Part shown: positions 2,750 through 7,032 of the stretch, one piece after another
Numbering within the stretch: the first letter of the stretch is position 1
Layout of the letters: every line of letters starts with the position of its first letter
Origin: Neodothiora populina
Taxonomy: Eukaryota
NCBI RefSeq assembly: GCF_041146345.1
Contig: NW_027191405.1
Location: 124,001-188,000, forward strand
Direction: 5' to 3'
Length of the DNA: 64,000 bases
Notes under the pieces: model-generated
Database searches by the model: none
Seen by the model: only the letters and a program-made list of their open reading frames with translations
Told to the model about the DNA's origin: nothing
Program-made: the position numbers and the translations under genes

Positions 2750-4108
2750 TTATTTCTTCTCGCGCTGACCGTAAGCCTTGGTGGCGTAGTCACCCTTGTA
2801 GACGATCAAGTCCTGAGGGTTGTAGTCCTCGCGGCCAGAGAAGTAAGAGTCGAGAATGGCCTTGGTGCCGGCGGCGTATCTGGCCTGGGCATCGAGGGAG
2901 GTACCGGACATGTGAGGAACGGTAGCGTTACCGCCACCCCAGGTGGTGTAGGATGCGTAACGCAGAGGGTGGTCCTTGGGAGCGGGCTGGACGTCCCAGA
3001 CGTCACCACCGTATCCACGGAGCTGGCCAGACTTGAGAGCCTCGGCGACATCCTCCTTGACGACGATGGCGCCACGGGCGGTGTTGATGAGCCATGAACC
3101 TGTTTGATGCGATTAGTTTGTTTGCAGAGAATAAAACGAACGAAAGAAACCCACCCTTCTTCATCTTGGAGATGAGCTCCTTGTTGAAAAGTCCCTTGGT
3201 GGACTCGTGGAGAGGACAGTTGATGGTGACAACGTCGCACTGGGCGAGCATGTCCTCGAGCTTCTCAACACGGCGGCAGCCAATCTCCTGCTCCTTCTCG
3301 GGAGAAAGGGGCTGGTAGTCGTAGTAGAGGAGCTCCTTGCAGTCGAACGCCTTGAGTCTGCGGAGGACACGCTCACCGATACGGCCGACAGCGACGGTAC
3401 CGACGACCTTGTTCTCGAGGTCGTACTCGTTCTTGGCGACAGCGGCGACGTTCCAGTCACCGCGGGCAATCATTTCGTGAGAAGGAACGAAGTTACGGAC
3501 GAGGGTAAGGATGGTCATGATGACGTGCTCAGCGACGGAGACGACGTTGGAGCCAGTGACCTCGGCGACGGTGATACCGCCGTTGGTCTTGTTGGCAGCG
3601 TTGAGGTCGACGTGGTCGGAACCGATACCAGCAGTGACGGCAAGCTTGAGGTTCTTGGCCTTAGCAAGACGCTCAGCGGTGAGGTAACCGGGGTGGAAAC
3701 TTGAATTGAGATTAGTTTTAGATTTTGTTCTAGATGTACATCAAAAACTTACGGAGTGGTGATGATGACCTCGGCGTCAACAAGGTGCTTGTCCATGGTG
3801 GAGTCAGGTCTGTCCTTGTCCGAGGTGGTGACAAGTTCGTGTCCCTGAGACTCAATCCACTGCCTCAGACCGAGCTCGTTCTCGGTGGTTCCGAGAAGCT
3901 TGGGCTCCTGGAGAGCGTGCTCACCACCATCGTAGAGAACGAGAAGAACCTTGCCCTGTTGCGAGGAGGTCGCGGTCAGTGTTCTGATAGCACCGGTTTG
4001 ACGAATGGCATTGAAGGGAGAAGAGGCAAGGCGAGGAGCCACAGGGCTCGCACGCAATGAAGCCGCGGCAGGGCGAATGAAACGAGATGCAGAGCGAGTA
4101 AATACCAT
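2750..4108 (-). CDS. FDH1: NAD-dependent formate dehydrogenase
   Basis: Motifs [62 protein letters not shown] introns at 3700-3752 and 3100-3154; optional in-frame intron 3956-4105; TAA at 2750-2752. Confidence 0.97.
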
Positions 4109-7032
4109 TTTGGAAAAATAGAGAAAGAGTTGATGGGATAGAGAGAAAAGTGAGGACGGAGGCGGATGTTATATGCGAGAGCTGGAAGCTGTTGAAACGT
4201 CACCAGGAGTTAGCCATTCTGGGGTAACGGAAGTAATGTGAGATAAAGTTGGTAAATTGCACGCCAGCACTTAGCCGAGACAGCTCCAGAACTATCCCAA
4301 AAGGCAATGTCGCGGATCGATGACAGTTTTTGGAACAGGGGGGTTTGCTGCGGCTGGTGCTGTCGCTGGTGCTGCATGGAAGGCTCGGTAGAGTTGGGTG
4401 ATTGGGTACGTGGTATGTTTTGACTTACTGTGGCGTGAGTTACAACCGTAATATAATCCGGCACGTTTCGGCTGGATTGATATGATGTTATGTAGGAGGG
4501 TCTGAAACGAATATCTTCTTGAAGAATGAAAAAGGACGACTAGGAGGGGCAGAGCTGCCATTCTTATACCGCAACAGGATATCCATGTTTGCCATCGCTC
4601 GCCTTTTCCTCGTCTTACCTGTCTCTCCGCTTTGTGATCTACCACAGTGTACAGAGATACCCAAATCCACATGAATGTGAGCTGGTGCTTCCGCGATGTT
4701 ACGGTAAAGCTATGTGGTGCGGCACCGCCCTTGTCGCTAGGGAGCCCTTAGTGATGGCGTGTAGTCTCACGCACTGACGTCAAAACCCCACTTCCCACTT
4801 CCGTCAATCATTGCACTTGACTCTGCCAGATCGAGAATCTTCGCGATTCATTTACCCAATTTGCATTCACGCGAATTCGATGATTAGCTAATTCCATTCT
4901 TCGAATCTGTTCTCGTGTGTCAAGCAAGAGTACCATCTTCCAACGGGATCCGTCCAAGTCGCAAGACGAAAGAGGGGTGGGCGTTGACCGTCGTACCCAA
5001 AATCCGGCCATAACTCCATGGGCCTTAGCTCCTCAAGCTTTCCCCACATCCGGCCGCGTAGTCCCGAGAAGCATCGCGAGATGACCGAGAGAAAGGCGAA
5101 ACCCTAACCTGCAAGTGATTTCAAACACTGCAGAGGCGTCTGATAACTCGCGCACTTTCGGGCGATGTTCGGTGAATGCCATCTATCATCGACAGGCACC
5201 GGCGGCCGAGTATCGCTCGCAGACGTGCAGCGAGAACACGTATTATTGTCTCAATCGTTCTACAGAGAGGGGGCGAAAGTGCGAGGCTGTGTAGTGTACG
5301 GTCGCAACTCGGGACCGAGGTGTTTTGCTTAATTTCCATACCTTGGCCTACTGGACGACATGTCCTTCCCGCGCTTCGAGCCTCGATTAGGTCACCGAGT
5401 GCGGCGGACACATGTTCTTCAGCTGAACCAGTGCTTTCCCCCTTCCAGCAAAGTGGAGTCGTGTTTCTGGAACTCTCTCATCGCCTGTGTGCCTGCAAGG
5501 TACAGTAATCGCCTTGTATAGTATCGTACCACATTGCTGCGCGTGTATTCCGCCCTCCCATGAGTTGGCAAAACGTACAATGCCGGGCGGCATGCTACGG
5601 AGCACCGTTTGGTTAATCATTGGTCATACTGCTTGTGCATGATTCAGAAGACGATTCGTCCTCGTTATTGACCTGCACGTCCTTTCCACCGGTATCCGAA
5701 CTTTGCAAAAGAAGAATGCTATACTTTACAGTAATGTCCTCATGACTTTAAGTCCAAGTCCTCCCCGATTCACTTTCCCTTAACTTCCTCCTTCTGCTTC
5801 TTATTGAGTTCTACCTTGATGGTCCGCAGCCCTGTCGTTCTCCTGTTCACAAAAGAAGAGCCCTCGACCTCAACATCGGTGCCTGCTCTTCTCAATCCAG
5901 CATATCCACGAGCGACAGCGGGACTGCAGTAATTACGTGAAGTGCAGATTGGCATCAGCACGCCATCGCCTCGGGATCTAGACTCTCGGAGCGCATCTTA
6001 CTTCCATCTCGCAAAAAAAAAGGCAATAAACAGCAATGAAAGACTCGGCCAACCACGGATCGAGCCGCATTCCGCAGGGACCCACGAGGCGGATCCACGG
6101 GGTGTATGCACTGTTCGCCTCTGAAGCGGCAGCTGTAGCAGTAGTACAGTAGCAGCAGTAGGTCTAGTCGATCCACAAGTCTAAAGTAGACGTCCCTTCT
6201 TTCGTGAAGACACAGTACTACCGTCGTAGTAGACTAGCATCGAAGAAGACCAGTGGAAAAGACCTAAACAGTAGTAAGTGATCATGGAATCGCTTCTCAA
6301 ATCAAACGCAGATCAATCCAGAATTTAAGCCTGTCCATTCATGATCAACGATGCTACTGCTTTCGTCCTTCTTACTGTCACGTCAAATTCCTAAATCGGG
6401 AGAGAAGCTCACATTGACCGCCTCTTGTTCGGAACGACGTTGCATTCAAAGTTACGAAGACGACACTCACCCAACCCGACCTTGAGTGAGCGTCCCCACA
6501 TGGCTTGTACTGTACGGAGTATTGTATTGTTGTCTCCACAGATGCGTTGCTTAGTACAAAGTACAGTACGTTTTCTTCCTAAATAGTGGAACGGACTTGA
6601 CTTTTACTGGACTTGTGCTAGTCAGCTGGCTGCAGAAGCTATACTGCTGATATCAGAGAAGGTATTCTCGTACATCATGTTGTTACTAATCACTACCTTA
6701 GCCTTACCTTGCTGTCCTCCGTCTAATCATGGAATCCCGTTCGGCGTGGGAGAATGCGCCGTTTCCATCGTGCTCCCACACTGCCGATATATCTCATCAG
6801 TGTGTGTTACAGAAACTTTCCCCACGCTCTCAGGACGGTCCACCTCACCGCTTATAACTTTCGAGAGGACGGTCAAGAGGAGTCGCTTCCGTCTCCATTA
6901 AAGTAGTCGTAATCATAAGTATCCAGCTATATGTATGTCAAAGTAAGAAGCGCCAGCAGCCAGTCCGACCCATCCCAGCCCAAGTTCAGTCAGTCGTTGC
7001 ATCGAAGGCATAAACAATACTCTACTACGGAC

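Follow-up and report, generated by a model that had tools for sequence, protein, structure and literature searches.

A segment behind the start codon of the Neodothiora populina formate dehydrogenase gene that may serve both as a mitochondrial presequence and as a phase-0 intron

The formate dehydrogenase (FDH) gene of Neodothiora populina raises a question of reading: are the 150 nt that follow its start codon coding sequence, an intron, or both? The gene lies on the minus strand of the window, by which we mean the whole 64,000-nt stretch of contig NW_027191405.1 analyzed here, and runs from 4108 to 2750 as three exons and two constitutive introns, as laid out from the sequence and its translation (Table 1). 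The product that keeps the segment has 416 amino acids and is 100% identical to an NCBI protein from N. populina, and the public annotation of the gene holds this form only. Precomputed domains on the identical protein (P0001) are Pfam PF00389 and PF02826, those of the FDH family, and the mature region is 84-90% identical to named formate dehydrogenases, including A. nidulans aciA. Judged by these likenesses, the gene product is an NAD-dependent formate dehydrogenase of the D-isomer-specific 2-hydroxyacid dehydrogenase family.

A first-pass annotation, made from the letters alone, had proposed that the segment is both presequence and intron, and the features that it named are reproduced here. 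GTATTT stands directly after the minus-strand ATG (4105-4100), ACTGACC followed by CAACAG and GGCAAG is found where the segment ends at 3956, and the span 4105-3956 is exactly 150 nt long, in frame and without a stop, with a 50-residue translation that matches the quoted peptide (the span first given, 3956-4108, counts the ATG too). Because the segment is annotated coding sequence, a stop-free length divisible by three is unsurprising taken alone. Introns of filamentous ascomycetes, whose length ranges from tens to a few hundred nt, have a GT donor and, about 15-40 nt before a YAG acceptor, a CTRAY-type branch site, a consensus with which 61 downstream FDH donors agree. The segment has the parts of a spliceosomal intron (GTATTT, ACTGAC, CAG, 150 nt), with a donor that deviates at +5. 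ACTGACC occupies 3980-3974, and the branch A is the 21st base counting from the 3' end of the segment. Around the start ATG stand an A at −3 and a G at +4, and removal of the segment would leave the latter unchanged.

Table 1. Positions of the FDH gene features in the window
Feature	Position	Strand	Remark
Shared start codon ATG	4106..4108	minus	Common to both predicted isoforms
Weak 5' splice site GTATTT, codons 2-3 (Val-Phe)	4100..4105	minus	T, not G, at +5
Putative dual-purpose segment, 150 nt	3956..4105	minus	Codes residues 2-51 or would act as phase-0 intron
Branch-site motif ACTGAC, branch A 3976	3975..3980	minus	Codons Thr-Leu-Thr within RTLTAT
3' splice site CAG, Gln51 codon	3956..3958	minus	Followed by GGC AAG (Gly-Lys), mature enzyme start
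Exon 1 remainder, mature N-terminus through ITTP	3753..3955	minus	From translation
Constitutive intron, 53 nt, GTAAGT...CAAG	3700..3752	minus	Skipped by RNA contigs from relatives
Exon 2	3155..3699	minus	Gene model
Constitutive intron, 55 nt, GTGGGT...ACAG	3100..3154	minus	Gene model
Exon 3, including stop codon 2752-2750	2750..3099	minus	Gene model

Mitochondrial presequences are N-terminal, carry a net positive charge without acidic residues, are rich in Ser, Thr, and Ala, and can form an amphipathic helix; those processed in two steps have Arg at −10, a hydrophobic residue at −8, and Ser, Thr, or Gly at −5. The presequence-like character claimed for the peptide at the outset is borne out on each of these points. 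The 51-residue N-terminal peptide (Met plus 50) contains 13 Ser/Thr and 10 Ala, and our composition count agrees with the earlier description of it as rich in Ser and Ala with 7 Arg and no Asp or Glu. The maximum hydrophobic moment, 0.93 over residues 3-13, indicates an amphipathic N-terminus, and Arg, Leu, and Thr fall at −10, −8, and −5 relative to Gly52, which is the two-step processing pattern. The peptide is also under purifying selection: dN/dS lies between 0 and 0.55 over 28 ungapped pairs of related presequence DNAs, from which we conclude that the segment is selected as a peptide. L003 and L074, for instance, differ at 16 synonymous sites and at 0 non-synonymous ones. The RTLTAT block is present in most homologues in the N-terminal alignment. 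At 3974-3986 on the minus strand of the window, the RTLTAT codons hold the branch-site motif and the Arg-10/Leu-8/Thr-5 pattern on the same bases, and the strong conservation of the block may reflect two overlapping constraints.

The retained form is widespread. In a homologue search with exon 1 as the query, 108 of the best 120 homologues examined start with MV and reach the conserved Lys only after more than 30 residues, and the remaining 12 are truncated or 5'-extended records. Judged by name, the sources of the 108 include Dothideomycetes, Eurotiomycetes, and lichen-forming fungi. Gln stands just before the Gly/Ser/Ala-Lys of the mature start in 91 of the 108; among the other 17 are 15 Aureobasidium-type sequences with ...RQN or ...RQD. 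The cDNA-derived UniProt entry Q9Y790 from Zymoseptoria is likewise a long form. Moreover, four contigs (L008, L009, L010, L012) retain the segment and continue in uninterrupted downstream frames of 365-369 codons to the stop, whereas related genomic loci (L016-L018, L061) have introns within the same downstream stretch. Since the downstream introns are gone while the segment stays, the retained form would be a finished mRNA in these relatives rather than just precursor RNA, with the matching of species being approximate. Two records named for trees, P0076 (Quercus suber) and P0089 (Carpinus fangiana), hold a fungal-type FDH with the MVF...RTLTA block and are probably fungal sequences inside plant assemblies.

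Whether the same stretch also keeps the signals of an intron was addressed with a metagenome scan and an alignment of the N-terminal regions, which gave 80 loci. In 62 of these, as in the window, the ATG is followed by GT and the Lys codon comes only after a long stretch; these 62 loci plus the window form 43 clusters at 95% identity. The 18 loci outside the cluster counts are 11 short cDNA forms (4 MGKVL, 7 MVKVL) and 7 others, namely two 5'-truncated contigs, two without a recognizable motif, and three with other N-termini. Cluster tallies and the hypergeometric figure given below were worked out by hand. The first-pass annotation had pointed to Pezizomycotina FDH loci as the place to look for a conserved 3n, stop-free segment after the ATG, and this is what 39 of the 43 clusters have; donor, branch site, and acceptor are also found again at these orthologous loci. 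GTA follows the ATG in 40/43 clusters, with donor hexamers distributed as GTATTT 23, GTACTT 6, GTATTC 5, GTATTG 3, GTATTA 2, GTAAGC 1, and other 3. RCTRAC is present 17-21 nt before the acceptor in 38/43, written in Thr-Leu-Thr codons with Leu as CTA in 18 and CTG in 20, and AG is found at the junction in 41/43, mostly as CAG, with AAG in the loci of the MVL...REK/VKVL type described at the end (the slash marks the junction).

Codon usage in the rest of the enzyme provides a background for these counts. Across nine mature FDH coding sequences, GTA accounts for 7/302 Val codons (2.3%), TTT for 10/67 Phe, CTA for 4/296 Leu, and CTA and CTG together for 74/296 Leu, while CAG stands at 80/99. The mature coding sequence of the window gene is stricter, with GTA in 0/32 Val, TTT in 0/5 Phe, CTA in 0/35 Leu, and CTA plus CTG in 2/35. 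The window segment thus places the rare codons of its own gene where the splice signals lie, GTA TTT in the donor and CTG in the branch site. For GTA, CTA or CTG, and CAG, the three signal codons, to occur together by chance has a probability of ∼0.5% (hand arithmetic on pooled usage from the nine coding sequences). Synonymous sites kept in states avoided elsewhere in the gene fit the prediction for splice signals and do not fit coding alone. The same comparison of codon bias rules out a GT and an AG that fall at the segment ends by chance.

One feature of the donor sets it apart from the other introns of these genes. A G at +5 is found at the ATG-adjacent donor in 1/43 clusters (L062/63), while the donors of the two downstream introns of the same loci have it in 61/61 cases (27 + 34). 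A donor that is conserved yet weak fits a design in which both mRNAs exist, and both are expected for this reason, although the poor match to the other introns of the gene could also mean that the donor is rarely used. In the window all three signals are in the state most often seen among the clusters, and the presequence is intact; on these grounds we consider it likely that both spliced and retained mRNAs are made from the window gene. The main rival, as we rank the explanations, holds that the segment is plain coding sequence here, never spliced, so that FDH is only mitochondrial and the splice-like signals are ancestral relics. The 416-aa form as sole public annotation would suit it, and so would the T at +5, set against the G of every constitutive donor counted. 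It could further draw on the two Aureobasidium-type loci, L001 and L002, which are nearest to the window by presequence and have no branch motif; L002 is also without the acceptor AG. These losses indicate that the signals can decay within this order of fungi, and splicing may have been given up in the Aureobasidium-type relatives. RTLTAT may, in addition, be conserved partly for presequence processing, and GTA TTT after the ATG might serve translation initiation.

The manner in which the signals are lost elsewhere speaks against such relics in the window. The branch motif is missing in five clusters (L001, L002, L022/23, L025, L075) and GTA in three (L001, L025, L075), all of them among the five that lack the branch motif. 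The hypergeometric probability of this co-loss is 10/12341 (∼8e-4), a figure to be read with L001/L002 and L025/L075 as probably related pairs and thus few independent events. Where splicing has seemingly been abandoned, then, the signals decayed jointly; in the window they have not, and GTATTT (23/43), RCTRAC (38/43), and CAG are all intact in their commonest state, with the rare GTA, TTT, and CTG kept against the bias of the gene. We therefore regard a never-spliced segment as unlikely.

Evidence for the short form comes from relatives. A second search, with the mature region only as the query, returned 48 additional proteins, of which 32 start with MG-K; 7 of these are genome gene models, with Baudoinia, Pseudocercospora fijiensis, and A. 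nidulans aciA among those that start MGKVL, and 25 are from 1.2-2 kb jgi/lgn contigs. Because an ATG at the mature start is absent from every genomic sequence examined, the Met of the short form must be the upstream ATG joined by splicing. The metagenomic, cDNA-like contig L029 shows the junction directly: it is 99.5-100% identical to the genomic L062/L063, joins the ATG straight to GGA AAA, is also without two downstream introns, and differs from L062/L063 by an excision that is exactly ATG/GT...AG/GG. In L062/L063 the segment (1550-1625) is only 69 nt long, the donor is strong (GTAAGC), and the peptide is no longer presequence-like; this lineage (L062/L063/L029) probably has cytosolic FDH only. 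A second pair, P0149 and P0078, comes from one transcript catalogue. The two have a common in-frame leader and ∼145 identical first mature residues, and their N-terminal difference is exactly the 50-residue presequence; their C-terminal halves differ, and they may be chimeric assemblies or come from close paralogues. Both mRNA forms, which the first-pass annotation had put forward for detection, are accordingly found in relatives (L029 vs L062/L063; P0149/P0078). Logan contigs from four runs of relatives, compared with window positions 3500-4300 at 80% likeness, skip the 53-nt intron, and several enter the 3' end of the segment by 5-38 nt (up to 3961-3994) and then diverge. No contig in these four runs bridges 4105-3956, but a divergent 5' UTR and a far exon of only 3 nt would keep such a joint from aligning in any case, and its absence speaks neither for nor against splicing in the window gene. 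In a search of sequencing runs for the locus of this organism the best run contains 0.10 of the sampled words.

The short forms could be taken to mean that the segment is an ordinary constitutive intron, with the long frame and the 416-aa annotation as gene-prediction artefacts. The GT...branch...AG signals and the 32 MGKVL database forms, gene models included, are what one would expect of it. However, the dN/dS values of the 28 pairs, which show selection on the peptide, and the 39/43 clusters with a 3n, stop-free segment point the other way, as do the retained forms in contigs that have shed the downstream introns and the long, cDNA-derived Q9Y790. Where the peptide truly decayed, in L062/63, it did so along with a strong donor and a shortened segment. 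We hold a constitutive intron to be very improbable.

A different source for the short form would be an internal transcription start, or downstream or non-AUG initiation, a known route to dual localization in Aspergillus. Bol3 of Aspergillus fumigatus resembles the proposed FDH case in that a single gene supplies mitochondria and cytosol with forms distinguished by the presequence alone, and it differs in mechanism, which according to the available text is initiation at a downstream AUG (PMC11285713). The window FDH has no such AUG, the count of ATG between codon 1 and Lys53 being zero, and the short forms of relatives start Met-Gly behind the same 5' leader as the long ones, which only splicing explains. 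It is highly unlikely that initiation accounts for them. An internal start codon as such is ruled out, since none is present in the window segment.

Splice-controlled dual targeting, the reading first proposed for this locus, is therefore supported as a comparative conclusion, and one gene probably supplies FDH to both mitochondria and cytosol. Retention of the segment would give the 416-aa precursor with its 51-residue presequence, which would be imported into mitochondria and processed in two steps to a mature enzyme that begins at Gly52. Removal of the segment as a phase-0 intron would join the ATG to GGC AAG and give a 366-aa cytosolic enzyme with an MGKVL start, and the ratio of spliced to retained mRNA would set the split between the compartments. 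For N. populina itself, splicing, import, the cleavage site, and any condition-dependent regulation are what we infer from sequence. Taking all of the above together, we are mildly inclined to see in the segment an ancient, Pezizomycotina-wide dual-coding element whose donor is kept weak to tune the mitochondrial to cytosolic ratio of FDH and which lineages have repeatedly resolved. In such an element, Val2-Phe3 would be the donor, the Thr-Leu-Thr of the processing motif the branch site, and the last Gln the acceptor, and both compartments would end up with an identical Gly-start enzyme, in the cytosol through loss of the Met and in the matrix through two-step processing. Lineages that lost the signals together would have been left with mitochondrial FDH only, those with a decayed peptide and a stronger donor with cytosolic FDH only, and those that added a small extra intron with alternative 5' splice sites.

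Whether such an arrangement had been described for related fungi, a question that the first-pass annotation could not settle, can be answered: it has, briefly. A 2011 review by Alekseeva, Savin, and Tishkov states that in some pathogenic fungi the FDH genes code for a signal peptide. For Ajellomyces (Histoplasma) capsulatus, with reference to Hwang et al. 2003, it reports alternative splicing into FDH mRNAs that contain or lack the signal peptide, and it suggests organelle targeting of fungal FDH as in plants (PMC3347622). AjcFDH1 and AjcFDH3 of A. capsulatus belong to the same enzyme family as the window FDH, for which a like presence or absence of a presequence through splicing is proposed. 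Both the principle and the fact that it occurs in fungal FDH are thus already in print, at least in outline, in that review (PMC3347622). Its accessible passages on the two forms do not describe splice-site anatomy or say that the removable segment is in frame directly after the ATG, and they contain neither a conservation analysis nor localization data; Ajellomyces is an onygenalean pathogen, whereas N. populina is a dothideomycete. The plant mitochondrial enzymes, as treated in the accessible part of the same source, are also NAD-dependent and have a cleavable N-terminal presequence rich in Arg and in Ser/Thr, but theirs is described as ordinary coding sequence, not reported there as splice-removable, and has no sequence relationship to the fungal presequence of the MVF...RTLTAT type (PMC3347622).

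Two yeast genes offer further parallels. In S. cerevisiae PTC7, as is proposed for the window FDH, translation or removal of an in-frame intron yields proteins that go to different compartments (PMC7491326; Juneau et al. 2009). From what is accessible of the former paper, the retained PTC7 intron codes for a transmembrane helix and the spliced form is mitochondrial, whereas the retained FDH segment is the predicted mitochondrial signal and begins at codon 2; perfect consensus sites are found in several of the PTC7 introns, in contrast to the conserved weak donor of FDH; and in some lineages PTC7 has been resolved into always-spliced or never-spliced genes (PMC7491326). In Yarrowia lipolytica MDH2, alternative splicing likewise decides the compartment of a metabolic dehydrogenase, but through two 3' splice sites and between cytosol and peroxisome, with neither a retained presequence nor mitochondria in the account available (PMC3372373, Kabran et al. 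2012). Beyond the 2011 review we found no explicit description of the FDH arrangement in the open-access literature, a search that leaves subscription journals largely outside and counts as weak evidence. The open-access literature searched also yielded no localization experiment on any fungal FDH and no account of the exact anatomy, the constraint on synonymous sites, the weak-donor rule, or the breadth across classes. The depth of conservation of the arrangement seems not to have been described before.

To the best of our knowledge, functional alternative splicing is rare in fungi. If the dual reading is true, a single weak intron would determine where a central enzyme of one-carbon metabolism resides, and the FDH segment would be a clean example conserved to great depth. 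It would also provide a testable handle, as changes of a single synonymous codon, GTA or CTG, should shift localization with both proteins unaltered. The discordant annotations of fungal FDH orthologues, about 365 aa in some and about 415 aa in others, would be explained with neither being wrong, and metabolic models of formate handling and localization predictions in these fungi should then include both forms. As a worked example of simultaneous protein-coding and splicing constraint on the same nucleotides, the locus would be a tidy and experimentally tractable case of dual coding that introduces no new principle.

Several lineages depart from the window arrangement. Four clusters (L049, L053/64, L069/70, L079/80) have an extra insert of 54-59 nt, GT...CTRAC...AG, directly after the CAG of the presequence (at about 1500-1700 of each locus). 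They keep the ATG-adjacent GTATTT or GTATTC, and the insert breaks the frame in 3/4, an arrangement that would leave a choice between two 5' splice sites and one acceptor. The Aureobasidium-type sequences (L001, L002, P0003-P0016) have RSLSAT in place of RTLTAT and an extra N or D after the Gln. At L054 (about 1452-1605 in locus coordinates), TAG replaces CAG as the last codon of the presequence when compared with the near-identical L042/L043/L045; the retained form would stop at this TAG, the acceptor AG is intact, and the change may be allelic or may stem from a sequencing error. Finally, a second type of presequence, MVL...REK/VKVL with an AAG acceptor, is found in L031, L033, L035, L044, L046-L048, L050, L052, and L058, and its predicted spliced product starts MVKVL. 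Seven cDNA-like contigs (L041, L051, L055, L056, L060, L067, L071) have this start; none of them pairs with a genomic locus, and they may derive from genes without the segment.
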